A stretch of 25,896 bases of DNA, from the UHGV virus genome UHGV-0344337; one strand, 5' to 3'. The notes below the pieces were generated by a model. That model worked only from the letters and a program-made list of their open reading frames with translations. It was not told the origin of the DNA and made no database searches. The stretch is from a virus. Positions 1,911 to 15,383 of the stretch are shown piece by piece (within the stretch, counting starts at the first letter, position 1; the number at the start of each line of letters is the position of its first letter). The position numbers were made by a program, and so were the translations under genes.

Positions 1911-1956
1911 TTTTTCAACGATGGGCTTTGTATACCCGACGTTAAGAAAAAGTAGA

Positions 1957-1980
1957 AAACCCGCTGATGAGCGGGTTTTG
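1957..1980 (+). terminator. Rho-independent terminator, tR'-like
   Basis: Hairpin CCCGC-tgatga-GCGGG (1960-1975) followed by TTTTGTGCTTT, about 50 nt downstream of the putative late promoter. Confidence 0.5.
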
Positions 1981-2271
1981 TGCTTTAAATGGGGCAATGG
2001 TAATGTTGAATCTCATCCCGGGACTCATGTCTGTTAACTTATTATTTAGCTGGTGACTTGGTTATTTGCCTGATGTTTAAAATGTTTTCTTCCAGTACAA
2101 TGTCCCTAAACACAATGAGTCTGCTTATTATATTATTAGCAGAGCTATTACGGCCAAAGTACAGCATAAGCTTTTAAAGCCAATCAACCAGTCATCAAGA
2201 CAGACGGGGTTATTCATAAAAACTCTCCATGTGTGATCCGATGGGGCCTGAAATTAAAGCTTTAATATAGC

Positions 2272-2484
2272 TCATGAAAGGTAAACATTGGCAGCTGAAG
2301 GGCCACGCAGACCATTTATCCGGCAAAATTCCACGCGTAATCCGGTGGTAATTTCTTCTGCATCGCGGAGATTGAGCGCTGAAACATGAAGCTGGACATC
2401 GATACGACCATCGGATGGGGTGATAAGACCCTTGCCGCTTTTGCCGTCAAAGGTTTTGACAATTCCTGTCATTTTACGGGACAA
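2272..2484 (-). CDS. cspF: Cold-shock-like protein CspF (CspA family)
   Basis: 70-aa [24 protein letters not shown]...; CspA-family fold signature with degenerate RNP motifs; divergent from cspB as in the K-12 Qin locus. Confidence 0.85.
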
Positions 2485-2607
2485 AAAAATTCCTTAATAC
2501 TGACAACTTGGCGCACTATACACACGTTCCTGAAGAAAGCTATAGTTTTTTGATGGGGTTGAAGATGGCTGGATGTCTAAAATAAACATTGCTTCATATG
2601 TTCAACT

Positions 2608-2618
2608 ATGCGTTAATG
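2608..2618 (+). promoter_or_regulatory. Conserved csp upstream element ATGCGTTAATG (cspB copy)
   Basis: Identical 11-mer about 177 nt upstream of the cspB ATG; second copy at 5512-5522 upstream of cspI. Position is consistent with the promoter/5'-UTR start of long-leader cold-shock genes. Confidence 0.3.
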
Positions 2619-2784
2619 ATTGCGTCGGTTTGAAGAACAGACGATATACGAAGTAGTTTACTAAAGCAGTTCTCATTTCAGGTGTTATTCACTTATTCCT
2701 TCTTTGAGTCTCTCCAATTAAGTACGAAGTCGTTTCTGTTATGCAAACCATTTATGCCGAAAGGCTCAAGTTAAGGAATGTAGA

Positions 2785-3000
2785 ATGTCAAATAAAATGA
2801 CTGGTTTAGTAAAATGGTTTAACGCTGATAAAGGTTTCGGCTTTATTTCTCCTGTTGATGGTAGTAAAGATGTGTTTGTGCATTTTTCTGCGATTCAGAA
2901 TGATAATTATCGAACCTTATTTGAAGGTCAAAAGGTTACCTTCTCTATAGAGAGTGGTGCTAAAGGTCCTGCAGCAGCAAATGTCATCATTACTGATTAA
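2785..3000 (+). CDS. cspB: Cold-shock protein CspB (CspA family)
   Basis: 71-aa [41 protein letters not shown]... with RNP1 (KGFGFI) and RNP2 (VFVHF) motifs; AAGGAATG start context; long upstream leader. Confidence 0.9.
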
Positions 3001-3281
3001 AATTCATCGCTCGTCTGTATACGATAACGAAGAAGGCTGATGCCTGAGTAGAGATACGGACAGAGTAGTGAATATTGGATTTCTTTAATAAAAATTAAGG
3101 AGGTCCAATACATGAAACAATGGCCAGCATATTTGGCAAAATCTTAATCAGGAAAAGTATGCTAACCATTGTGGTGAAGTGCAGGTTTGCTGCATGAATA
3201 GTTTTACAGCAGAAGCTAACTGCTGGCATGGCAAAACAAAGTGCGTAAGTGGATGACTCCCACAAAAAGCACCACAATCTC

Positions 3282-3306
3282 AAACCCGCTCAGGCGGGTT
3301 TTTTAT
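3282..3306 (+). terminator. Rho-independent terminator (possibly bidirectional)
   Basis: Perfect hairpin AAACCCGC-tcag-GCGGGTTT followed by a T-run; an A-run on the 5' side would allow function on the minus strand too. Confidence 0.5.
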
Positions 3307-3363
3307 TATCTGCTTTAAATATATTATTAAAATATAAAAAATACTTGTTACTAATAAAATCAA

Positions 3364-3534
3364 TCAGGCTACAGCTTTAAGATTTGTCTGGAATACTTTG
3401 TTGCAATGAGGGCAGATCAAAAGGGCACCTTTTTGTACTCTTGAAAAACTGTGTTCTGACTCTTGGGTGCAGTTTGGGCAGGAACATTTAACGAGATAAT
3501 TACGGCGTGATTTTGAGTCTTTACGTTCTGACAT
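3364..3534 (-). CDS. Small zinc-ribbon protein (CxCxxC...CxxC), hypothetical
   Basis: Minus-strand ORF; preferred start at the internal Met (MSERKDSK..., 56 aa) with AGGA 7 nt upstream; a longer 73-aa form would start at 3585. Motif KCSCPNC...(19 aa)...CPHC. Confidence 0.45.
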   Translation of the reverse strand: MSERKDSKSRRNYLVKCSCPNCTQESEHSFSRVQKGALLICPHCNKVFQTNLKAVA

Positions 3535-3753
3535 AGGCTTTTCCTGTATAAATGGCCGTATACAGTACACTAAATATGAAAACATTTCTCGTATTATTAT
3601 TTTATATATGACTTTCTTTCAAAATAATTACTCACATTTTTAATGTGTATGTTTCTTTAGCGCCGTTGAGAACAGCGTGTGCTGTCAAAACTACCCCGTA
3701 GACTCCGATCTTTTCAAACATATTGCACCATCCGTGTACATCGGGGTGAGGAT

Positions 3754-3969
3754 ATGAAATCAATGGATAAGTTAACAACAGGTGTTGCCTATGGCACATC
3801 GGCGGGTAATGCTGGTTTCTGGGCATTGCAGTTACTCGATAAAGTAACTCCGTCACAGTGGGCTGCAATCGGTGTGCTGGGTAGCCTGGTATTTGGCCTG
3901 CTGACGTACCTGACAAATCTTTATTTCAAGATTAAAGAAGACAGGCGTAAGGCTGCGAGAGGAGAGTAA
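3754..3969 (+). CDS. essQ: Class II holin / pinholin (phage 21 S-type) with dual-start motif
   Basis: 71 aa beginning MKSMDKL (Met1 and Met4 give the antiholin/holin pair as in S21); two TM segments; C-terminal [13 protein letters not shown]. First gene of the lysis cassette. Confidence 0.85.
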
Positions 3970-3973
3970 TCCA

Positions 3974-4281
3974 ATGACTCAAGACTATGAACTGGTTGTG
4001 AAAGGAGTCCGTAATTTTGAGAATAAAGTTACGGTAACTGTAGCCTTACAGGACAAAGAACGCTTTGACGGTGAAATTTTTGGCCTGGATGTCGCCATGG
4101 ACCGTGTTGAAGGAGCTGCGCTGGAGTTTTATGAGGCAGCAGCCAGAATGAGCGTCCGGCAAGTCTTCCTGGAAGTAGCAGAAAAATTGTCAGAAAAAGT
4201 TGAGTCTTATCTGCAGCATCAGTACTCCTTTAAGATTGAAAATCCTGCCAATAAGCACGAGCGTCCTCATCATAAATATCT

Positions 4282-4285
<4 letters not shown>
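3974..4285 (+). CDS. ydfR: DUF1327-like protein (YdfR-like) located between holin and endolysin
   Basis: 103-aa acidic ORF with no TM segment; ATG 4 nt after the holin stop; its stop overlaps the endolysin start (ATGA). Family assignment is from memory. Confidence 0.6.
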
Positions 4286-5309
<1,024 letters not shown>

Positions 5310-5511
5310 ATTAATATTAAATCGGATTATTTTTAGCGCTGAATGTGAAATTTAAATAAAAAGGACTCTTCCATGAGTCAAAATCCTTGAAATCTTAAGG
5401 GTAAGATAAAAGGTCATTAGACAGAATGACACGTTTTATTAATAAATAAAGATATTGTTTCATTCGTGTGTTTTTCTTTACAAAAGTAATCCTTGCTATG
5501 GTTGGTTAATC

Positions 5512-5522
5512 ATGCGTTAATG
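5512..5522 (+). promoter_or_regulatory. Conserved csp upstream element ATGCGTTAATG (cspI copy)
   Basis: Same 11-mer as at 2608-2618, about 160 nt upstream of the cspI ATG. Confidence 0.3.
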
Positions 5523-5672
5523 GTGTTCTGGTTTGTTACAAAATTATCTGAAGCAGTCATTGTTATAATTTTATTATTTGTACCTCTTGAGATTTCCTTG
5601 TTGGTTTTTCTCTCTGATATTTTTTTTCGGACCATTCTGCCCAAGGGCTAACTTCTTCAAAAGGTAATAATG

Positions 5673-5885
5673 ATGTCTAACAAAATGACTGGTTTAGTGA
5701 AATGGTTTAACCCTGAAAAAGGTTTTGGTTTCATCACGCCGAAAGATGGTAGCAAAGATGTGTTTGTGCATTTCTCAGCTATTCAGAGCAACGATTTCAA
5801 AACGTTAACTGAGAATCAGGAAGTCGAATTTGGTATTGAGAACGGACCTAAAGGTCCTGCAGCTGTTCATGTAGTGGCACTTTGA
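5673..5885 (+). CDS. cspI: Cold-shock protein CspI (CspA family)
   Basis: 70 aa [38 protein letters not shown]... with RNP1/RNP2 motifs; tandem ATGATG start at 5670/5673. Confidence 0.9.
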
Positions 5886-6084
5886 GGTAGAAAATATTAC
5901 AAACCATATTCACTTTAGATGCCCGTGTTGCCATGGTTCTCAGTATAGAACATCATCTTTTGATGTTTCTGACAGAAATCCTTTCGGGGCAAAATGTATC
6001 TTTTGTAAATCAATGATGATTACATTTGATAATATTTCACAATACTTAAATGTTAGCCATCTGTCGTTAGATTTAAGAAAGTGA
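5875..6084 (+). pseudogene. Start-less zinc-ribbon reading frame (CxCC...CxxC) between cspI and its terminator
   Basis: 69-codon open frame with no in-frame ATG/GTG/TTG before the Cys motif (RCPCCHG...(22 aa)...CIFC). Its stop is 7 nt before the terminator at 6091. Same Cys architecture as the ORF at 3364-3534. Confidence 0.3.
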
Positions 6085-6090
6085 AAATGA

Positions 6091-6112
6091 AGGCTCCTTC
6101 GGGAGCTTTTTT
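6091..6112 (+). terminator. Rho-independent terminator (UUCG tetraloop)
   Basis: GGCTCC-ttcg-GGAGC hairpin followed by TTTTTT; about 200 nt downstream of the cspI stop. Confidence 0.6.
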
Positions 6113-6231
6113 GCTTAGTGTCTAGTCGATGGATACTCACATATTACGGTAACATTATGAAAAAAATAATAGTTTTTTTTAACTCTGAACCAGCAATGGT
6201 AGTGCCAGTGATGACCGGAGTTAACACCATC

Positions 6232-6387
6232 ATGCGTGAATATCCAAATGGCGAAACAACACACCTCACTGTAATGGCTGCAGGGTTTCCATCTCTGACC
6301 GGAGATCATAAAGTCATTTATGTAGCAGCGGATCGACATGTAACTTCAGAAGAAATTCTGGAAGCAGCAATGAGACTCTTGAATTGA
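6232..6387 (+). CDS. Small hypothetical protein, possibly YnfN-like (51 aa from ATG 6232)
   Basis: ORF open from 6118 (GTG) or 6157 (ATG); best RBS (GGAG 6217-6220) precedes the ATG at 6232, giving 51 aa MREYPNGETTHLTV.... Position between cspI and gnsB matches the K-12 gene order. Start and identity are uncertain. Confidence 0.4.
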   Translation: MREYPNGETTHLTVMAAGFPSLTGDHKVIYVAADRHVTSEEILEAAMRLLN

Positions 6388-6559
6388 TTTGATTCTAATG
6401 CATTGATAATAAATGATAATCATCTTTATCTGTTTGTGTGAAATTTAGACCGTCGTATGTTGATTATTGCGATGTTTCATCTTATCTTTTATACGTTTGC
6501 TCCATATAATTGACACTACTGTGTACCAGGACAGTCATAACAGACTAAAAGAGGAAATG

Positions 6560-6733
6560 ATGAACATTGAAGAGTTAAAAACAAAAACAGAAGCAGATAT
6601 TTCTGAATATATAACAAAAAAAATCATTGAGCTTAAGAAAAAGACCGGGAAAGAAGTTACCAGTATCCAGTTTACTGCACGGGAAAAAATGACTGGTCTT
6701 GAAAGCTATGATATCAAGATTGATTTAATCTAG
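6560..6733 (+). CDS. gnsB: GnsB (Gns family, 57 aa)
   Basis: MNIEELKTKTEADISEYITKKIIELKKKTGKEVTSIQFTAREKMTGLESYDIKIDLI; GAGGAA RBS at 6551-6556; terminator downstream. Confidence 0.8.
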   Translation: MNIEELKTKTEADISEYITKKIIELKKKTGKEVTSIQFTAREKMTGLESYDIKIDLI

Positions 6734-6796
6734 CATGTTTATAGTATTAGCATCAATTTCTCATCAGATGCTATTCAACAATACAAATTACCCATA

Positions 6797-6818
6797 AACC
6801 TCGTTTTTACGGGGTTTT
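6797..6818 (+). terminator. Rho-independent terminator after gnsB
   Basis: AACCTCG-ttttta-CGGGGTT hairpin (one G-U pair) followed by a T-run. Confidence 0.5.
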
Positions 6819-7028
6819 GTTATATTTAAACATTACCGAATAGATATAAATCTCGATTGTCGATGGTATTGGTTGTGTGACAATACCTAGTCTTTCCGGT
6901 ATGCCTGAAGAGAATACAAACGACAGATTATGTAAGGGAAACGCGCTGAAACTTTCACTCTTTCATGCTGAGTGATTTGACGTTATATTTTTAGCCGCAA
7001 GTGAAGAGCAAACGAATGGAGCGACAAA

Positions 7029-7140
7029 ATGCGTAAAGATCAATACACTGATGCCCCCTCCCAGGAGCAGGTTCGTGTAAAAACTATGCTTAATAGCACC
7101 ATTTCGATGGGTTACCCGGATGTTGTAATTGCATGTATAG
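7029..7140 (+). pseudogene. 5' fragment of a small (68-aa) prophage ORF disrupted by IS3
   Basis: ATG 7029 with GGAG 7 nt upstream; reads [37 protein letters not shown], then runs into the IS3 left end and stops after 13 IS-encoded codons. Confidence 0.5.
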
Positions 7141-7179
7141 TGATCTTACCCAGCAATAGTGGACACGCGGCTAAGTGAG
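7141..7179 (+). repeat. IS3 left terminal inverted repeat
   Basis: TGATCTTACCCAGCAATAGTGGACACGCGGCTAAGTGAG; matches the reverse complement of 8360-8398 with a few mismatches. Confidence 0.9.
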
Positions 7180-7205
7180 TAAACTCTCAGTCAGAGGTGA
7201 CTCAC

Positions 7206-7505
7206 ATGACAAAAACAGTATCAACCAGTAAAAAACCCCGTAAACAGCATTCGCCTGAATTTCGCAGTGAAGCCCTGAAGCTTGCTGAACGCATCGGTGT
7301 TACTGCCGCAGCCCGTGAACTCAGCCTGTATGAATCACAGCTCTACAACTGGCGCAGTAAACAGCAAAATCAGCAGACGTCTTCTGAACGTGAACTGGAG
7401 ATGTCTACCGAGATTGCACGTCTCAAACGCCAGCTGGCAGAACGGGATGAAGAGCTGGCTATCCTCCAAAAGGCCGCGACATACTTCGCGAAGCGCCTGA
7501 AATGA
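7206..7505 (+). CDS. insE: IS3 transposase OrfA (InsE)
   Basis: 99 aa [32 protein letters not shown]...; HTH region; overlaps insF by 4 nt as in IS3-family orfA/orfB. Confidence 0.95.
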
Positions 7506-8368
7506 AGTATGTCTTTATTGAAAAACATCAGGCTGAGTTCAGCATCAAAGCAATGTGCCGCGTGCTCCGGGTGGCCCGCAGCGGCTGGTATACGTGGTGT
7601 CAGCGGCGGACAAGGATAAGCACGCGTCAGCAGTTCCGCCAACACTGCGACAGCGTTGTCCTCGCGGCTTTTACCCGGTCAAAACAGCGTTACGGTGCCC
7701 CACGCCTGACGGATGAACTGCGTGCTCAGGGTTACCCCTTTAACGTAAAAACCGTGGCGGCAAGCCTGCGCCGTCAGGGACTGAGGGCAAAGGCCTCCCG
7801 GAAGTTCAGCCCGGTCAGCTACCGCGCACACGGCCTGCCTGTGTCAGAAAATCTGTTGGAGCAGGATTTTTACGCCAGTGGCCCGAACCAGAAGTGGGCA
7901 GGAGACATCACGTACTTACGTACAGATGAAGGCTGGCTGTATCTGGCAGTGGTCATTGACCTGTGGTCACGTGCCGTTATTGGCTGGTCAATGTCGCCAC
8001 GCATGACGGCGCAACTGGCCTGCGATGCCCTGCAGATGGCGCTGTGGCGGCGTAAGAGGCCCCGGAACGTTATCGTTCACACGGACCGTGGAGGCCAGTA
8101 CTGTTCAGCAGATTATCAGGCGCAACTGAAGCGGCATAATCTGCGTGGAAGTATGAGCGCAAAAGGTTGCTGCTACGATAATGCCTGCGTGGAAAGCTTC
8201 TTTCATTCGCTGAAAGTGGAATGTATCCATGGAGAACACTTTATCAGCCGGGAAATAATGCGGGCAACGGTGTTTAATTATATCGAATGTGATTACAATC
8301 GGTGGCGGCGGCACAGTTGGTGTGGCGGCCTCAGTCCGGAACAATTTGAAAACAAGAACCTCGCTTAG
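7502..8368 (+). CDS. insF: IS3 transposase OrfB (InsF), DDE integrase domain
   Basis: 288 aa [22 protein letters not shown]...; DDE-type catalytic core; in the -1 frame relative to insE, the arrangement IS3-family elements express by programmed frameshifting. Confidence 0.95.
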
Positions 8369-8398
8369 GCCTGTGTCCATATTACGTGGGTAGGATCA
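8360..8398 (-). repeat. IS3 right terminal inverted repeat
   Basis: Reverse complement TGATCCTACCCACGTAATATGGACACAGGCCTAAGCGAG; overlaps the 3' end of insF. Confidence 0.9.
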
Positions 8399-8400
8399 TA

Positions 8401-8496
8401 GAACATCAAGTATCTCTGGAAGCATTCAGGGCAATTGAGGCCGCGTTAGTAAAGCACGATAAGAATACGAAGGATTATTCCCTGGTGGTTGACTGA
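8401..8496 (+). pseudogene. 3' fragment of the IS3-disrupted small ORF
   Basis: Joining 7029-7140 to 8402-8496 after removing IS3 and one TAG copy restores an uninterrupted 68-codon frame (...[34 protein letters not shown]). Confidence 0.5.
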
Positions 8497-8532
8497 TCAC
8501 CATAACTGCTAACCATTCTGACCATTTCACAA

Positions 8533-8561
8533 GTGACAGAGTCAATATCGTATTCTGTCAC
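8533..8561. repeat. Perfect 8-bp inverted repeat GTGACAGA / TCTGTCAC with 13-bp spacer
   Basis: Read directly from the sequence; lies in non-coding DNA between the IS3-disrupted ORF and the cos region. Confidence 0.4.
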
Positions 8562-8861
8562 TGTAAGGCTAATACAGTACTGCAATTCAACTACAGCAAT
8601 GCCTCGTATTTAGGTGAATTTACAATATCGTCCAGTTCGGATGCCGGCTGCATTTCTGAAGATAAGGCATTTCGGTTCGCGTATTTTCCCCTCATGCTCG
8701 TCAGTCCTGCGCGTAGTAAGAAACAGGACACTCACACTAATTTGTGTGGGCATGCTGTGATGTCCTTCTGAATTATCCCCATGCCATTATGTAACGCTCT
8801 GTTTCAGATGCTCGTCACGGTTGTCAGGCTGTCGGGTCCTCCCAGTGGGGGTCCCTGCCAC

Positions 8862-8879
8862 GGGGCGGGAGCGTCGCGG
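8862..8879 (+). other. Candidate cosN (cohesive-end site), lambda-like
   Basis: ACGGGGCGGGAGCGTCGCGG resembles lambda cosN (ACGGGGCGGCGACCTCGCGG) including the flanking ACG and CGCGG; the putative 12-nt end GGGCGGGAGCGT starts 196 bp upstream of the Nu1 ATG, matching lambda geometry. Confidence 0.5.
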
Positions 8880-9058
8880 AAAAAGACTAGTTTTTGCATT
8901 TCCATGGCGGCGGCAGCATGTTTGGTAATTTATTGATAATTAAAAGTTATTTCTCTTTTCACCTGTACAATATTTTTTTCTCCCTGTCATTAGACCAGTT
9001 TGCAATTAATTGAAATATATAAATAAACCTGATTTTCACCTGCCAGATGGAGTTGCTT

Positions 9059-9586
9059 ATGTCAAATGTGAGCGGGATCGGTGATGCTTATTACTGGAGT
9101 GTTTTTAAAATCGCCGAGGCCTTTGGGCTTCACCGGGACACAGTAAAAAAACGGCTCCTCGCGGCCAACACTCCTGTGGCTGCGACTGTCAGGGGGAACC
9201 CCGTTTACGCCCTGCAGCATGTCGGGCCCGCCCTGTTTAGTGTGAAGCATGAGGCAGCAGACTCTGTTCATGATCCATCCCGTATGGAGCCGAAAGAGAG
9301 AAAGGACTGGTACCAGTCTGAAAATGAAAGGATCAAGCTGGAAAAGGAGCAGCGAAAACTCATCCCAGTTGATGAAGTAGTCATCGTCTATTCGTCCATG
9401 AGAAAGGCTGTCGTCCAGGTTCTGGAGACAATTCCGGATGTTCTTGAACGCGATTGCGCCCTGACTCCTCAGGCCGTCGGCGTTGTACAGCAGGCCATTG
9501 ATGACCTGCGATACACTCTTCAGGAAAAATCCTACGAGGCTTGTGCTGCTGAATTAATTCCTGATGAGGAAGGAGAGAGTCTCTAG
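9059..9586 (+). CDS. Nu1: Terminase small subunit (Nu1-like)
   Basis: About 175 aa with N-terminal HTH-like segment (YYWSVFKIAEAFGLHRDTVKKRL); GGAG 7 nt upstream of ATG 9059 (ORF opens at 9047); immediately upstream of the large terminase. Confidence 0.8.
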   Translation: MSNVSGIGDAYYWSVFKIAEAFGLHRDTVKKRLLAANTPVAATVRGNPVYALQHVGPALFSVKHEAADSVHDPSRMEPKERKDWYQSENERIKLEKEQRKLIPVDEVVIVYSSMRKAVVQVLETIPDVLERDCALTPQAVGVVQQAIDDLRYTLQEKSYEACAAELIPDEEGESL

Positions 9587-9594
9587 GAGGAATA

Positions 9595-11694
9595 ATGGGT
9601 TTTTCATCAGCCCGAAATTTGGGAAGGGACATATCGGCAGGATTTTCCCCACCACGTCGCATGCCGATTTCGGAGGCTGTTAAAAAATTCATGCGTGTTC
9701 CCAAGGGGGCTGGTAACTCGGTGCCATGGGATCCTGAACTGACACCCTACATCATTGAGCCCATGAACTGCCTGGCATCGCGTGAATACGATGCGGTGAT
9801 TTTTGTTGGTCCTGCGCGAACAGGGAAGACCATTGGTCTGATCGATGGATGGATTGTCTATACCATCGTTTGCGATCCTTCGGACATGCTCGTTGTGCAG
9901 ATGACCGAAGATAAGGCCCGCGAGCATTCTAAAAAGCGCCTCGACAGAACGTTCAGAAGCAGTGCGGCGGTAAAGAAAAGAATGAGTCCACGTCGTAACG
10001 ACAATAATGTCCATGATAAGACGTTCAGGGATGGCTCGTTCCTTAAAATTGGTTGGCCCTCGGTCAACATTATGTCGTCGTCGGATTACCGGTTTGTCGC
10101 CTTAACCGATTACGACCGTTTTCCGGAGAATATCGACAGCGAGGGTGATGGTTTCTCCCTGGCCTCAAAACGTACCACCACATTTATGTCCGCCGGGATG
10201 ACTCTGGTGGAGAGCTCGCCGGGACGTGACATCTGCGACAGCAAATGGCGACGTAAGTCGCCTCATGAAGCGCCACCGACGACTGGTATTCTTTCCCTTT
10301 ACAATCGTGGTGACCGCCGCCGCTGGTACTGGCCATGTCCGCACTGCGGTGAATATTTTCAGCCAGCTATGGATGCCATGACCGGCTACCGTAATGAACC
10401 GGATCCCTTTAAAGCCAGTGAGGCGGCGTATCTACTTTGCCCGCACTGCAGCGGCATTATCACTGCGGAGAAAAAGCGTGAGCTCAATAGTGCAGGAGTC
10501 TGGTTGCGTGAAGGTCAGGTCATTGATCGTAACGGCAACGTTTCCGGTGAACCGCGCCGCTCCCGTATCGCCAGTTTCTGGATGGAAGGGCCAGCTGCTG
10601 CGTATCAGACCTGGGCGCAACTGGTTTACAAATTACTGACTGCAGAACAGGAGTATGAAGCGACAGGAAGCGAAGAAACACTCAGGGCGGTTATCAACAC
10701 CGACTGGGGATTGCCTTATCTTCCTCGTGCCAGCATGGAGCAACGAAAAAGTGAACTGCTTGAGCAGCGGGCAGAGCCAGTTCCTTCCCGCAGTGTTCCG
10801 GATGGCGTTAATTTCCTTGTGGCGACAGTGGATGTGCAGGCGGGACGTCATCGCCGTTTTGTGGTTCAGGTAACGGGCTATGGCAGCCGTGGCGAACGCT
10901 GGATTATTGATCGTTACAACATCACGCAGTCATTGCGCAGTGACTGCGACGGGGAGAGCCAGCGAATTGATCCGGCCAGCTATCCGGAAGACTGGGATGT
11001 CCTGCTGACGGATGTTTTTCATAAAAGCTGGCCGCTGGCCTCCGATCCTTCTCAACAAATGCGACTGATGGCAATGGCGGTGGACTCCGGCGGTGAAGAC
11101 GGGGTCACTGATAATGCCTATAAATTCTGGCGTCGTTGCCGTCGTGATGGCCTTGGTAAACGTATTTACCTGTTTAAGGGCGACAGCATCCGGCGCGCAA
11201 AACTGATCAGCCGTACATTCCCTGATAACACCGGACGAACGGGCCGCCGGGCGCAGGCCGCAGGTGATGTGCCGCTCTGGCTTCTTCAGACGGATGCCCT
11301 GAAAGACCGGGTGAATAACGCGTTATGGCGTGACTCGCCAGGTCCAGGCTATGTGCATTTCCCTGACTGGCTGGGGAGCTGGTTTTACGACGAACTGACG
11401 TATGAAGAGCGGAGCAGTGACGGGAAATGGAGTAAGCCGGGTCGCGGTGCCAACGAAGCTTTTGACCTGATGGTGTATGCCGAGGCTCTGGTCATTCTGC
11501 ATGGATACGAAAAGATCCGCTGGCCGGATGCACCGGAGTGGGCGAGCCGGGAAACCTGGCTGGAGTGTGTCCCGGACAGTACCGAACCGTCACCCTCACC
11601 GGAACCGGTACCCACGCCTGTTAAAAAACAAAAACGGAAGAAAACAGTAACTGACGATGTTAACCCCTGGCTGACTTCCGGAGGATGGTTATGA
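9595..11694 (+). CDS. A: Terminase large subunit (lambda gpA family)
   Basis: 699 aa; Walker A-like VGPARTGKT; AGGAGG RBS at 9585-9590; size and position typical of gpA. Confidence 0.9.
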   Translation: MGFSSARNLGRDISAGFSPPRRMPISEAVKKFMRVPKGAGNSVPWDPELTPYIIEPMNCLASREYDAVIFVGPARTGKTIGLIDGWIVYTIVCDPSDMLVVQMTEDKAREHSKKRLDRTFRSSAAVKKRMSPRRNDNNVHDKTFRDGSFLKIGWPSVNIMSSSDYRFVALTDYDRFPENIDSEGDGFSLASKRTTTFMSAGMTLVESSPGRDICDSKWRRKSPHEAPPTTGILSLYNRGDRRRWYWPCPHCGEYFQPAMDAMTGYRNEPDPFKASEAAYLLCPHCSGIITAEKKRELNSAGVWLREGQVIDRNGNVSGEPRRSRIASFWMEGPAAAYQTWAQLVYKLLTAEQEYEATGSEETLRAVINTDWGLPYLPRASMEQRKSELLEQRAEPVPSRSVPDGVNFLVATVDVQAGRHRRFVVQVTGYGSRGERWIIDRYNITQSLRSDCDGESQRIDPASYPEDWDVLLTDVFHKSWPLASDPSQQMRLMAMAVDSGGEDGVTDNAYKFWRRCRRDGLGKRIYLFKGDSIRRAKLISRTFPDNTGRTGRRAQAAGDVPLWLLQTDALKDRVNNALWRDSPGPGYVHFPDWLGSWFYDELTYEERSSDGKWSKPGRGANEAFDLMVYAEALVILHGYEKIRWPDAPEWASRETWLECVPDSTEPSPSPEPVPTPVKKQKRKKTVTDDVNPWLTSGGWL

Positions 11695-11903
11695 ATCAGA
11701 ATGATATTGAAGCCATGATTCAGCGTTATACGGAAGCTGAAATGGCGGTGTTGGACGGAAAATCCGTCACTTTTAATGGTCAGCAGATGACCATGGAAAA
11801 CTTATCTGAGATCCGGCAGGGGCGGCAGGAGTGGGAGCGCCGCCTTGCGGCTCTGATTACACGACGACGGGGGCATCCCGGGTACCGGCTGGCGAGGTTC
11901 TGA
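11691..11903 (+). CDS. W: Head-tail joining protein gpW-like
   Basis: About 70 aa (MNQNDIEAMIQRYTEAEMAVLDGKSVTFNGQQ...); ATGA overlap with the terminase stop; GGAGG RBS. Confidence 0.8.
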   Translation: MNQNDIEAMIQRYTEAEMAVLDGKSVTFNGQQMTMENLSEIRQGRQEWERRLAALITRRRGHPGYRLARF

Positions 11904-13411
11904 TGGCAATTCTTGATGATGTGATTGGCGTTTTTTCACCAGGATGGAAAGCGGCAAGGCTGCGTTCCCGTGCGGTGATCCAGGCTTATGAGGCCGTAAA
12001 AACGACGCGGACACACAAAGCCCGACGGGAGAGCCGAACTGCCGACCAGTTAAGCCAGTACGGGGCCGTGTCGTTACGTGAGCAGGCCCGTTACCTTGAT
12101 AACAACCACGATCTGGTCATTGGTGTATTTGACAAGCTGGAAGAACGGGTGGTGGGGAAAAACGGGATTATTGTCGAGCCACATCCGGTATTACGCAATG
12201 GGGCCATTGCCCGTGATCTGGCAGCGGAGATACGTACCCGATGGAGTGAATGGTCTGTCAGTCCGGAGGTCACCGGGCAGTTTACCCGTCCGATGCTGGA
12301 ACGTCTGATGCTGCGTACCTGGCTGCGCGATGGTGAGGTGTTTGCCCAGATGGTTTCCGGGCGCATAAACAGCCTGACGCCTTCTGCCGGTGTTCATTTC
12401 TGGCTGGAGGCGCTCGAGCCGGACTTTATTCCCATGACCAGTGATGAGAGCAACAGGCTGAATCAGGGCGTGTTTGTTGATGACTGGGGGCGTCCCGAAA
12501 AATATCTGGTGTATAAAAGCCGTCCCGTATCCGGGCGGCAGATGGAAACCAAAGAAGTGGATGCAGAGCGAATGCTGCATCTTAAATTTGTTCGCCGTCT
12601 GCACCAGATGCGCGGGACGTCTTTGTTGTCCGGTGTGCTGATCCGCCTCAGTGCTCTGAAAGAGTATGAAGATTCTGAGCTGACTGCAGCAAGGATCGCC
12701 GCTGCTCTGGGGATGTACATCCGGAAAGGCGACGGACAGAGCTATGAAACGGATGGTAATGACAGCAAGGAGAATGAACGCGAGCTTACCATTCAGCCAG
12801 GCATTATTTACGACGATCTGAAACCCGGCGAAGAAATCGGAATGGTGAAGTCGGATCGCCCCAATCCTAACCTTGAAACTTTTCGTAATGGTCAGTTGCG
12901 TGCCGTGGCTGCGGGCAGTCGTCTGAGTTTTTCCAGTACAGCGCGCAACTATAACGGCACTTACAGCGCCCAGCGTCAGGAGCTGGTTGAATCTACTGAT
13001 GGCTACCTGATCCTGCAGGACTGGTTTATTGGTGCCGTCACCCGCCCGATGTACCGTGCCTGGCTGAAACAGGCTGTGGCATCCGGTGTTATCAGGCTAC
13101 CCCGCGATCTGGACCGATCTTCACTGTATACCGCGGTGTATTCCGGACCGGTGATGCCGTGGATTGACCCTGTTAAGGAGGCTGAGGCCTGGAAAATTCA
13201 GATTCGTGGTGGAGCGGCGACAGAATCAGACTGGGTACGTGCAGGTGGTCGTAATCCAGATGATGTCAAACGTCGGCGCAAGGCCGAAATTGATGAAAAC
13301 CGCAAGCTGGATCTGGTATTTGATACCGATCCGGCCAGTGATAAAGGAGGCAGCAGTGCCGCAACGAAACGACAGGAGCCGCAGCACACCGACGACCAGT
13401 CCGAAGAATAA
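11903..13411 (+). CDS. B: Portal protein (lambda gpB family)
   Basis: 502 aa from ATG 11903 (TGATG overlap with W), starting MAILDDVIGVFSPGWKAARLR; size and position typical of a lambda-family portal. Confidence 0.9.
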   Translation: MAILDDVIGVFSPGWKAARLRSRAVIQAYEAVKTTRTHKARRESRTADQLSQYGAVSLREQARYLDNNHDLVIGVFDKLEERVVGKNGIIVEPHPVLRNGAIARDLAAEIRTRWSEWSVSPEVTGQFTRPMLERLMLRTWLRDGEVFAQMVSGRINSLTPSAGVHFWLEALEPDFIPMTSDESNRLNQGVFVDDWGRPEKYLVYKSRPVSGRQMETKEVDAERMLHLKFVRRLHQMRGTSLLSGVLIRLSALKEYEDSELTAARIAAALGMYIRKGDGQSYETDGNDSKENERELTIQPGIIYDDLKPGEEIGMVKSDRPNPNLETFRNGQLRAVAAGSRLSFSSTARNYNGTYSAQRQELVESTDGYLILQDWFIGAVTRPMYRAWLKQAVASGVIRLPRDLDRSSLYTAVYSGPVMPWIDPVKEAEAWKIQIRGGAATESDWVRAGGRNPDDVKRRRKAEIDENRKLDLVFDTDPASDKGGSSAATKRQEPQHTDDQSEE

Positions 13412-13424
13412 TTCCTGGTTCAGG

Positions 13425-15383
13425 ATGCAGGCAGGTCACCAGAGTGACGCGGATATTTATATTTATGACGAGATTGGTTTCTGGGGTGTTACGGCGAAGC
13501 AGTTTATCAGTGATCTGAATGCACTGGGCGATATCACCCACATTAATCTCCATATTAATTCACCGGGTGGCGATGTCTTTGAAGGCATCGCCATTTTTAA
13601 TGCACTGAAAACACATGGTGCGTCCATTACCGTTTATGTCGACGGTGTGGCGGCGTCAATGGCGTCGGTCATTGCGATGGTGGGAAACCCGGTCATTATG
13701 CCGGAAAACTCCTTCATGATGATTCATAAACCATTTGGCTTTACGGGCGGTGATGCGGAGGACATGCGCACCTATGCCGACCTGCTCGATAAAGTTGAGG
13801 CGGTTCTGTTACCCGCTTATGCACAGAAAACCGGGAAAACCACCGATGAAATTGCTGCCATGCTGGCGGATGAGACCTGGATGTCCGGTGCCGAATGTCT
13901 GGCACAGGGATTTGCTGATCAGGTGACACCAGCCGTTAAGGCAATGGCATGTATTCAGTCAAAACGTACAGAGGAATTTAAAAAGATGCCGGAATCCATT
14001 CGAAATATGATTACTCCGCCACGCAACAGTGCTCCACGCGTACAGGATGATGGACCTGCAGCCTCCCGGACGCCAGTGCAGGCAGCAGCACCCGTGGTGG
14101 ATGAAAACAGCATCCGTGCGCAGGTCCTGGCAGAGCAAAAAGCGCGTGTAAACGGTATTAATGATCTGTTTGCCATGTTTGGCGGGCGTTATCAGTCGTT
14201 GCAGGCTCAGTGTCTTGCCGATCCTGAATGTTCGCTGGAGCAGGCCCGCGAAAAGCTGTTGAACGAGATGGGGCGCGAGTCCACGCCATCCAATAAAAAT
14301 ACCCCGGCTCATATTTATGCCGGTAACGGTAATTTTGTGGGGGACGGGATCCGCCAGGCGCTGATGGCGCGCGCCGGGTTTGAAAAAACTGAACGTGATA
14401 ATGTCTACAACGGGATGACCCTGCGTGAATATGCCCGTATGTCACTGACTGAACGTGGTATTGGTGTTTCCAGTTATAACCCGATGCAGATGGTCGGTGC
14501 GGCGTTCACACACAGTACGTCTGACTTCGGTAATATTCTGCTGGATGTTGCGAACAAAGCCATTCTGCAGGGCTGGGAAGATGCCCCTGAAACCTATGAA
14601 CAGTGGACGCGGAAAGGTCAGTTGTCTGATTTTAAAATTGCCCATCGTGTGGGTATGGGGGGCTTCAGTGCTCTGCGTCAGGTGCGTGAAGGGGCAGAAT
14701 ATAAATACGTCACCACCGGAGATAAACAGGCCACTATTGCACTGGCGACCTATGGCGAGCTGTTCAGTATCACCCGTCAGGCCATTATCAATGATGATCT
14801 GAATATGCTGACCGATGTCCCGATGAAGCTGGGCCGTGCGGCGAAATCCACTATTGCCGATCTGGTTTATGCCATTCTGACGTCTAACCCGAAAATCTCC
14901 ACAGATAATGTAAGTCTGTTCGATAAAGCGAAACATGCAAACGTACTGGAGAGCGCGGCAATGGACGTGGCATCGCTGGATAAAGCCCGCCAGTTGATGC
15001 GCGTTCAGAAAGAGGGTGAGCGTCATCTGAATATTCGTCCTGCGTTCGTACTGGTACCGACGGCGATGGAGTCTGTTGCTAACCAGGTCATTCGCTCCTC
15101 AAGTGTCAAGGGGGCTGACATTAACGCCGGTATTATTAACCCGGTGAAAGATTTTGCGACCGTTATTGCAGAGCCTCGTCTTGATGATAACAGCCAGACC
15201 ACCTTCTACCTGGCTGCGTCCAAAGGCTCCGATACGATTGAAGTGGCTTATCTCAACGGTGTGGATACGCCATATATTGATCAGATGGAGGGCTTCAGTG
15301 TGGATGGCGTGACAACGAAAGTGCGTATTGACGCTGGTGTTGCGCCAGTTGATCACCGCGGCCTGGTGAAATGTACGGCGTAA
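13425..15383 (+). CDS. Prohead protease (ClpP/S14-like) fused to scaffold/major capsid domain
   Basis: 652 aa from ATG 13425 (frame is open from 13164). N-terminal ClpP-like motifs (GVAASMASVIA with candidate Ser, MIHKPFG with candidate His); long C-terminal region in the major-capsid position. Resembles the protease-scaffold-capsid fusion I recall for Gifsy-2-type heads. Confidence 0.75.
   Translation: MQAGHQSDADIYIYDEIGFWGVTAKQFISDLNALGDITHINLHINSPGGDVFEGIAIFNALKTHGASITVYVDGVAASMASVIAMVGNPVIMPENSFMMIHKPFGFTGGDAEDMRTYADLLDKVEAVLLPAYAQKTGKTTDEIAAMLADETWMSGAECLAQGFADQVTPAVKAMACIQSKRTEEFKKMPESIRNMITPPRNSAPRVQDDGPAASRTPVQAAAPVVDENSIRAQVLAEQKARVNGINDLFAMFGGRYQSLQAQCLADPECSLEQAREKLLNEMGRESTPSNKNTPAHIYAGNGNFVGDGIRQALMARAGFEKTERDNVYNGMTLREYARMSLTERGIGVSSYNPMQMVGAAFTHSTSDFGNILLDVANKAILQGWEDAPETYEQWTRKGQLSDFKIAHRVGMGGFSALRQVREGAEYKYVTTGDKQATIALATYGELFSITRQAIINDDLNMLTDVPMKLGRAAKSTIADLVYAILTSNPKISTDNVSLFDKAKHANVLESAAMDVASLDKARQLMRVQKEGERHLNIRPAFVLVPTAMESVANQVIRSSSVKGADINAGIINPVKDFATVIAEPRLDDNSQTTFYLAASKGSDTIEVAYLNGVDTPYIDQMEGFSVDGVTTKVRIDAGVAPVDHRGLVKCTA

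Follow-up and report, generated by a model that had tools for sequence, protein, structure and literature searches.

Organization of the locus

The DNA analysed here, a 25,896-nucleotide stretch of the virus genome UHGV-0344337 that we call the window, carries an insertion sequence, an intergenic region and, downstream of it, genes for two terminase subunits and a portal protein:

7141-8398: IS3, 1258 bp, flanked by the target duplication TAG (7138-7140 and 8399-8401)
9059-9586, plus strand: small terminase, 175 aa, DUF1441 (PF07278, E = 1.6e-44), with the Shine-Dalgarno sequence GGAG at 9049-9052
9595-11694, plus strand: large terminase, 699 aa, lambda gpA family (GpA_ATPase, E = 5e-81; GpA_nuclease, E = 1.8e-86)
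11831-13411: portal, lambda family

The IS3 copy has imperfect terminal inverted repeats and contains orfA and orfB with HTH_Tnp_1 and rve domains. Its excision in silico restores a 68-codon open reading frame (7029-7140 joined to 8402-8496) that is homologous to lambdap79 of lambda and is annotated as YbcW in the record of phage Tritos. Because the frame is restored once IS3 is removed, the 95 bp at 8402-8496 are a coding remnant, the last 32 codons of the ybcW/lambdap79 homologue that IS3 has split, and the true intergenic region is 8497-9058. An earlier reading of this DNA from its letters alone (the sequence-only reading) had described 8402-9058 as a noncoding stretch of about 650 bp, which is right for 8497-9058 and wrong for the 3' end of the ybcW-like gene at 8402-8496.

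The same reading had placed a perfect palindrome at 8533-8561, and this proved mistaken: the element is an inverted repeat whose 9-bp arms, 8532-8540 and 8554-8562, stand 13 nt apart. As RNA, 8532-8562 has a folding energy of -15.1 kcal/mol (z = -3.6), and lambda and Tritos have the same arms around other loops. The repeat lies 300 bp upstream of the cosN described below, outside the equivalent of the lambda minimal cos, which spans 48446-182 (PMC4856287), and it appears to play no part in cos. By megablast, window 8398-8641 aligns with lambda 47846-48090 at 84% identity, which makes the site syntenic with the right end of lambda, where the right end meets the left. An Rfam search of the intergenic region returned no family and a scan of it for promoter and terminator consensus sequences returned none, as would fit read-through late transcription into the terminase genes. 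A 51-aa open reading frame at 8781-8936, overlapping the cos, had no Pfam match.

The small-terminase gene has in-frame ATG codons at 9047 and 9059, and a Shine-Dalgarno sequence (GGAG, 9049-9052) precedes only the second, which therefore sets the start at bp 197, 196 bp past 8863 (bp numbers here count from the predicted left end of virion DNA at 8863). The Nu1 gene of lambda starts at bp 191, so that the distance from cosN to the small-terminase start does mirror lambda, as had been claimed from the sequence. The name Nu1 that came with that claim fared less well: a small-terminase gene does lie downstream, and it belongs to DUF1441 (PF07278), with no detectable homology to Nu1. BLASTP against lambda Nu1 gave no significant similarity (E = 4.6), hhalign gave a probability of 6.5%, the aligned part comprising the helix-turn-helix regions of both proteins, and a sequence search of the PDB gave no match. 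An AlphaFold model of the protein has an N-terminal helix-turn-helix followed by a beta-hairpin, and the best fold matches of this N-terminal domain are MerR-type winged-helix DNA-binding domains at non-significant scores (best E = 0.1). For lambda gpNu1, de Beer et al. 2002 reportedly described the DNA-binding domain as a MerR-like winged helix. Because neither the sequence comparisons with Nu1 nor the fold matches reach significance, the DUF1441 protein is, as far as such comparisons can tell, a functional analogue of Nu1 and not a detectable Nu1 homologue, and by analogy it plausibly works as Nu1 does. The exact protein occurs in 9,760 blocks of a public assembly index, corresponding to thousands of assemblies, and is therefore very widespread.

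A lambda-like cosN and its predicted cohesive end

Between the ybcW remnant and the small-terminase gene lies a site in register with lambda cosN, accompanied on either side by sequences that resemble its lambda neighbours:

8834-8840, plus strand: cosQ-like heptamer GGGTCCT, identical to the lambda heptamer at 48473-48479
8861-8876, no strand assigned: cosN, in register with lambda cosN, with partial symmetry and flanking CG dinucleotides
8863-8874, plus strand: predicted 12-nt 5' cohesive end GGGCGGGAGCGT, the predicted left end of virion DNA, where the cdtI and Tritos records start
8875-8896, plus strand: I2-like spacer CGCGGAAAAAGACTAGTTTTTG, conserved across cosB types and distant relatives

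Window 8860-8879 reads ACGGGGCGGGAGCGTCGCGG. In lambda (NC_001416), the cos junction consists of GGGCGGCGACCT between ...GGTTACG and CGCGGG, and the 12-mer at 8863-8874 is identical to it at 8 of 12 positions, with mismatches at bp 7, 8, 9 and 11. The flanks ACG and CGCGG are the same in both, giving 16 matches in 20 overall. The lambda-derived pattern ACGGGGCGGNNNCNTCGCGG, allowing at most 2 mismatches, matches once in the 25.9-kb window, and shuffled sequences lead one to expect 0.02 matches. A lambda cosN context at 8860-8879, as seen from the sequence, is thus borne out.

By homology with lambda, we infer nicks at 8862/8863 in the top strand and at 8874/8875 in the bottom strand, which would leave 5' overhangs. 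CG dinucleotides at 8861-8862 and 8875-8876 border both predicted nicks, and such dinucleotides beside the nicks are conserved in lambda-like phages (PMC4669245). The rotational symmetry of the site is partial, 8 of 16 bp in the window vs 10 of 16 in lambda.

All four mismatches to the lambda cohesive end are confined to its right half, bp 7-12. Vahanian et al. 2017 are said to have surveyed natural cosN variation. In lambda-like phages such variation falls in the cohesive end's right half, and the cohesive end of Gifsy-1 is reported to differ from that of lambda at bp 8, 9 and 11 (PMC4669245); by this published description, Gifsy-1 has three of the window's four mismatch positions. The Gifsy-2 site, whose interior differs (CCACGGGTGGCTTCGGGCTCGCGGG), was left out when the register was set.

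Genome records and relatives that mark the same end

A megablast of window 8398-9100 against phage records found two that open at the predicted end. Base 1 of the phage cdtI record (AB285204.1, flagged circular) aligns to window 8863, and the linear record of phage Tritos (OV696610.1) begins at the equivalent of 8863 and finishes at the equivalent of 8862; both start with GGGCGGGAGCGTCGCGG and finish with ...CCACG, the last base of which corresponds to window 8862. The 12-nt end that had been proposed from the sequence, GGGCGGGAGCGT, is therefore the end at which both records were opened. The small terminases of the two phages are 100% identical to that of the window. From the nick to the terminase gene, the cdtI cos region is at least 98% identical to the window's, whereas the DNA upstream of cosQ is unrelated, homology beginning at GGGTCCT. 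Neither phage has the IS3 present in the window, and neither record has a cos feature annotated. Strain LF82 carries Tritos as its prophage 3; the phage is released as virions and has been plaque-purified on one occasion (PMC9928086). The paper is silent on how the termini were determined. A search of accessible papers found no experimental end-mapping for this cos type, and the 12-mer was absent from the relevant papers.

Three further records bear on the site. That of Hafnia phage yong2 opens at the homologous CGCGG, at the predicted bottom-strand nick, and closes with its own 12-mer; a literature search for this phage returned unrelated papers only. For phage LLS, the record has GGGCGGCGCGCT marked as a 5' cohesive end at the position homologous to this one, and the ends of LLS and mEp213 were inferred, by the authors' own statement (PMC12315714). 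In the mEp460_4F5 record, the start lies 5 nt before the predicted nick, and 3 nt of cosN are missing. These three records give the predicted end weaker support than those of cdtI and Tritos.

Conservation among relatives of the small terminase gives a footprint of the same site. We compared ten lineages, the window and nine relatives with small terminases 55-84% identical to its own; the upstream DNA of the relatives was fetched mainly through protein matches, and a direct scan of genome contigs yielded two loci. The flanks (C/A)G and CGCG(G/A) stand exactly 12 bp apart in all ten lineages while the interior varies, the spacer downstream of cosN is conserved across the ten, and the small-terminase ATG lies at bp 196-198 in nine of them (eight of the nine relatives). 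These comparative tests all put cosN where the sequence-only reading had put it, and its proposal of a lambda-like cos region is supported.

Could the enzyme cut here with another geometry, the nicks being offset by one or two bases or the overhang being of another length? This is conceivable because identity between the large terminase and lambda gpA is as low as 24% (BLASTP, over 627 columns, E = 5e-22). The mismatch at position 11 belongs to the symmetric set of lambda and only half of the 16 bp are symmetric, some relatives have AG in place of CG on the left flank, and the start of the mEp460_4F5 record departs from the predicted nick. Against this stand the 12-bp gap, held exactly in every lineage despite free variation of the interior, and the record termini, which fall at the predicted top-strand nick in cdtI and Tritos and at the predicted bottom-strand nick in yong2. 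Given the fixed gap and these termini, we regard a different geometry as quite improbable.

A cosQ-cosN-spacer cassette shared among cosB types

The heptamer at 8834-8840 corresponds to lambda 48473-48479, which we take to be the cosQ of Wieczorek and Feiss 2001. In lambda, cosQ is the packaging-termination signal. The heptamer is separated from the nick by 22 bp in the window vs 23 bp in lambda, and GGGTCCT occurs twice in the whole window, one copy being the cosQ candidate. cosQ is highly conserved among lambda-like phages (Feiss et al., PMC4669245). On the other side of cosN, the spacer contains the tracts AAAAA (8880-8884) and TTTTT (8891-8895), 11 bp apart, and is kept in all cosB types as well as in LLS, yong2, Providencia and Trabulsiella. 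In lambda, I2 likewise has poly-dA and poly-dT runs, is statically bent and is required once cleavage has taken place (PMC4856287).

A scan of IMG/VR with GGGCGGGAGCGTCGCGG found more than 120 contigs; the pattern spans the site, and hence so does every match. Cassette statistics were drawn from 113 of the 123 recovered matches, those with a CACG flank. Among these, GGGTCCT is nearly invariant, and it marks the exact start of homology in several lineages whose upstream DNA is unrelated. The 34 bp past the nick are common to all copies (GGGCGGGAGCGTCGCGGAAAAAGGCTAGTTTTTG) and are followed by at least four types of cosB, with 40 copies of type A (the window's), 53 of type B, 15 of type C and one of type D among copies with enough downstream sequence. 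Each cosB type is paired with its own small-terminase variant, which starts at bp 187-197. The joint at 8896/8897 recurs in comparisons with mEp460_ev081 and strain XH988.

Lambda, 21 and N15 have cosQ, cosN and I2 in common and differ in a specific cosB (PMC4669245). At the level of sequence, one cosQ-cosN-spacer cassette joined to several cosB types is a parallel to the relation between lambda, phage 21 and N15, except that those three swap within the Nu1 family and the window's cassette types do so within the DUF1441 small-terminase family. LLS resembles the window: it has DUF1441 and gpA-like terminases, the same cosQ, likewise set at 22 bp, and the same spacer, CGCGGGAAACGGCTAGTTTTT, and its 12-nt end, which is like that of lambda, shows variation in the right half; the right-half sequence itself and the cosB are different.

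It is tempting to go further and to see in the cassette a socket common to at least four small-terminase/cosB specificities, with free recombination among them, and captured as well by satellite-like islands resembling capsid-forming PICIs. Three contigs (L013, L075 and L109) carry the window's type of cosB and no adjoining small-terminase gene. Genes were examined in one of these islands, L013; it carries, at a point further downstream, a gene for a small terminase whose DNA-binding domain is of a different, type-D-like kind. We hold this extension to be doubtful. If true, it would mean that packaging crosses specificities, or that phages of the cdtI/Tritos type are hijacked as helpers.

An IHF site and candidate terminase boxes in cosB

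The DNA between the spacer and the small-terminase gene contains the following features:

8903-8920 (bp 41-58), no strand assigned: R3-like candidate CATGGCGGCGGCAGCATG, at a position like that of lambda R3, with conserved columns
8926-8938 (bp 64-76), minus strand: I1-like IHF consensus TATCAATAAATTA, an exact match to WATCAANNNNTTR
8956-8968 (bp 94-106), plus strand: R2-like candidate TTTTCACCTGTAC, with an exact copy of TTTTCACCTG at 8956-8965
8985-8998, plus strand: conserved block TGTCATTAGACCAG inside cosB, kept in relatives despite diverged flanks
9033-9045 (bp 171-183), plus strand: R1-like candidate TTTTCACCTGCCA, with an exact copy of TTTTCACCTG at 9033-9042

The sequence-only reading had suggested looking downstream of cosN for an IHF consensus and for repeated motifs like the lambda R sites, and the first search succeeded outright. 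The match at 8926-8938 is one of two exact matches in the 25.9 kb; an exact consensus stands at bp 64-76 in five of the ten lineages, the window included, and the TTGAT core of the site is kept in cosB types A-C. In lambda, too, an IHF consensus lies about 65-75 bp from the left end, beyond an A/T-tract spacer, and stands within the terminase-binding repeats of cosB in the order R3-I1-R2-R1.

The search for R-like repeats was successful in part. A pattern search finds exactly two copies of TTTTCACCTG in the window (an automated repeat finder gave no such pair), and these serve as candidate boxes, whereas the lambda scheme, with R3 and R1 direct and R2 inverted, is not reproduced in their arrangement. 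Across 30 distinct type-A sequences the copy at 9033-9042 is invariant; the copy at 8956-8965 varies, tolerating a change of CACCTG to CAGCTG. Seven of the ten lineages have CACCT or AGGTG at bp 98-99 and six have it at bp 174-176, against an expectation from shuffles of about 0.2 per cosB, and the box at bp 98 takes either orientation, depending on the lineage. In the R3-like candidate, the columns CATG...CAGCA(T/G)G are conserved, one relative reading CATGCTGGCGGCAGCATG and a Providencia phage CAGCAGGTG; its degenerate box CAGCATG, at bp 52-58, lies at the position of lambda R3, which spans bp 50-65 (PMC9026076). We regard the CACCTG-type boxes as likely candidates for small-terminase binding sites. 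The block at 8985-8998 reads TGTCAT(T/C)(A/T)GACCAG in L144 and L142 and ACATCTGACCAG in L137 and L143.

Taken as a whole, the window has the sub-sites of lambda in the same order (cosQ-cosN-I2-cosB) and with like spacing, the cosQ heptamer being identical, and it shares with lambda a gpA-family large terminase and a lambda-family portal. The cosB sequences, by contrast, are unrelated, with CGTTTCC-type boxes in lambda and CACCTG-type candidates in the window.

The likeness to lambda cosN might in principle be a chance match in G+C-rich DNA, while the phage uses headful (pac) packaging or a cos at another place. A few viral contigs of high GC content, unrelated to these, do contain the 17-mer by chance. 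The low expectation for the window speaks against such a coincidence here, as do synteny with the right end of lambda, the cosQ heptamer, the IHF site and the conserved spacing to the small-terminase gene; headful packaging is further disfavoured by the gpA-family large terminase, which correlates with 5' cohesive ends. Together these observations effectively refute both chance resemblance and headful packaging.

A cos that most likely works as in lambda

We conclude that a lambda-like prophage of the cdtI/Tritos type has its cos here, from 8834 to about 9045, and that this site most likely works as the lambda cos does, with a probability of roughly 0.88. By analogy with lambda (PMC4669245, PMC4856287, PMC9026076), the small terminase, probably with IHF, would assemble on cosB. 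Its targets would be boxes of the CACCTG type around bp 50-58, 94-106 and 171-183, with IHF probably bending the DNA at 8926-8938; these roles of IHF and of the R-like boxes are assigned by homology with lambda. The cosB complex would then anchor the gpA-family large terminase on cosN, and this enzyme, the predicted nickase, would cut at 8862/8863 on the top strand and at 8874/8875 on the bottom strand. Strand separation would leave 12-nt 5' overhangs, the left end beginning 5'-GGGCGGGAGCGT, and the rejoined ends of virion DNA would read ...CCACGGGGCGGGAGCGTCGCGG. From the cosB-bearing end, the DNA would be pumped rightward into the prohead until the concatemer's next cos is reached, where cosQ (8834-8840), cosN and the A/T-tract spacer (8875-8896) would together trigger the terminating cut.

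Is the site still in use? The cos might be intact and yet a fossil, never cut in this strain, if the prophage is defective because IS3 blocks late transcription or because of damage beyond the window. Many lambdoid prophages of E. coli are indeed defective; here IS3 sits in the path of the late operon, 465 bp upstream of cosN, where it splits the ybcW-like gene, and no promoter-like site lies between it and the small-terminase gene. In lambda, however, RNA polymerase modified by Q reads through terminators. Moreover, the cos itself is intact, and so are the portal, the large terminase, which has its full length of 699 aa, and the small terminase, to which that of the active phage Tritos is 100% identical; IS3, in turn, lies outside the region equivalent to the lambda minimal cos, 48446-182 (PMC4856287). 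A fossil site is therefore unlikely in our view, while carrying considerably more weight than any of the other alternatives to a cos that works as in lambda.

The feature belongs to what is already known: it has the textbook architecture of lambda, and since the predicted base is where two published phage genome records open, describing it is a matter of routine annotation. Nor does it open a new question, because an identical sequence already stands at published genome starts in a lambda-type arrangement. In the accessible literature, the ends of the DUF1441 terminase group seem to have been inferred rather than measured. Knowing where this cos lies shows where a very common E. coli prophage module truly ends and in which direction it is packaged, and can be used in annotation, in predicting which flanking DNA is mobilisable, and in spotting satellites that carry the same signal.

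An apparent joint between packaging modules in the cos spacer

The window is sharply mosaic at 8896/8897, at bp 34/35 from the left end. Upstream of this joint, the ybcW-like region, cosQ, cosN and the spacer are 99% identical to phage mEp460_ev081 and to strain XH988, whereas downstream the cosB and head genes of the window differ in type from both. Packaging modules thus seem to have been joined by recombination within the spacer.

A relative from Trabulsiella guamensis (contig L135) has a repeated segment in its cosB region:

640-800 of L135, tandem duplication in cosB; the unit, of ~75 bp, comprises a box, an IHF-like site and a box in inverted orientation

Because this unit is duplicated in tandem, the small-terminase start is shifted to bp 207, as against bp 196-198.

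The region between the lysis genes and cos

Four features precede or overlap cos:

7029-7140 and 8402-8496, IS3-split ybcW/lambdap79 homologue of 68 codons, between the lysis region and cos
7141-8398, complete IS3 of 1258 bp, with a TAG target-site duplication
8532-8562, inverted repeat with 9-bp arms (AGTGACAGA / TCTGTCACT) and a 13-nt loop, 36 bp past the ybcW-like stop codon
8781-8936, ORF of 51 codons covering cosQ, cosN and the spacer

Taking the IS3 out of the window sequence makes the ybcW/lambdap79-like ORF whole again, and the identical IS3 junction is found in several complete E. coli genomes, including XH988 and STEC276. The inverted repeat folds as RNA at -15.1 kcal/mol (z = -3.6), and arms of 8 bp (GTGACAGA / TCTGTCAC) are kept in lambda and in phage Tritos (LF82 prophage 3), although the loop is different in lambda. 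Is it a terminator? The T-tract is absent after the repeat, which rules out a standard one. As for the 51-codon ORF, a Pfam search returned no matches; similar small ORFs are auto-annotated over the cos of phage HannyBb, and small ORFs across cos, in both phages, are probably spurious.

A satellite-like island with the same type of cos

Two features bear on the distribution of this cos and on the head genes:

1933-11448 of viral contig L013, satellite-like island adjoining a type-B prophage at the latter's large-terminase gene, which is truncated
13164-15383 of the window, ORF of 739 aa after the portal gene, described here by gene position alone

The window ORF occupies the same position as the ClpP-protease/major-capsid gene of Gifsy-2-like heads, in which the two are fused (PMC12315714), and is comparable to a 637-aa protein of the island. 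Two further contigs, L075 and L109, also have a cosB of the window's type and may carry similar islands, being grouped with L013 by their cos.

The L013 island begins with genes for an integrase, a Bro-N protein, a DUF4222 protein, an AAA_25 protein and an SSB. Next comes a complete cos (cosQ, cosN and cosB) that is of the same type as in the window but lacks a neighbouring small-terminase gene. Beyond cos lie the 637-aa protein, a ClpP-capsid fusion by domain scan, and then a small terminase of the DUF1441 family. At its N-terminus this protein has a type-D DNA-binding domain, not one of the window's type, and does not match the island's cosB. The island resembles a capsid-forming PICI.
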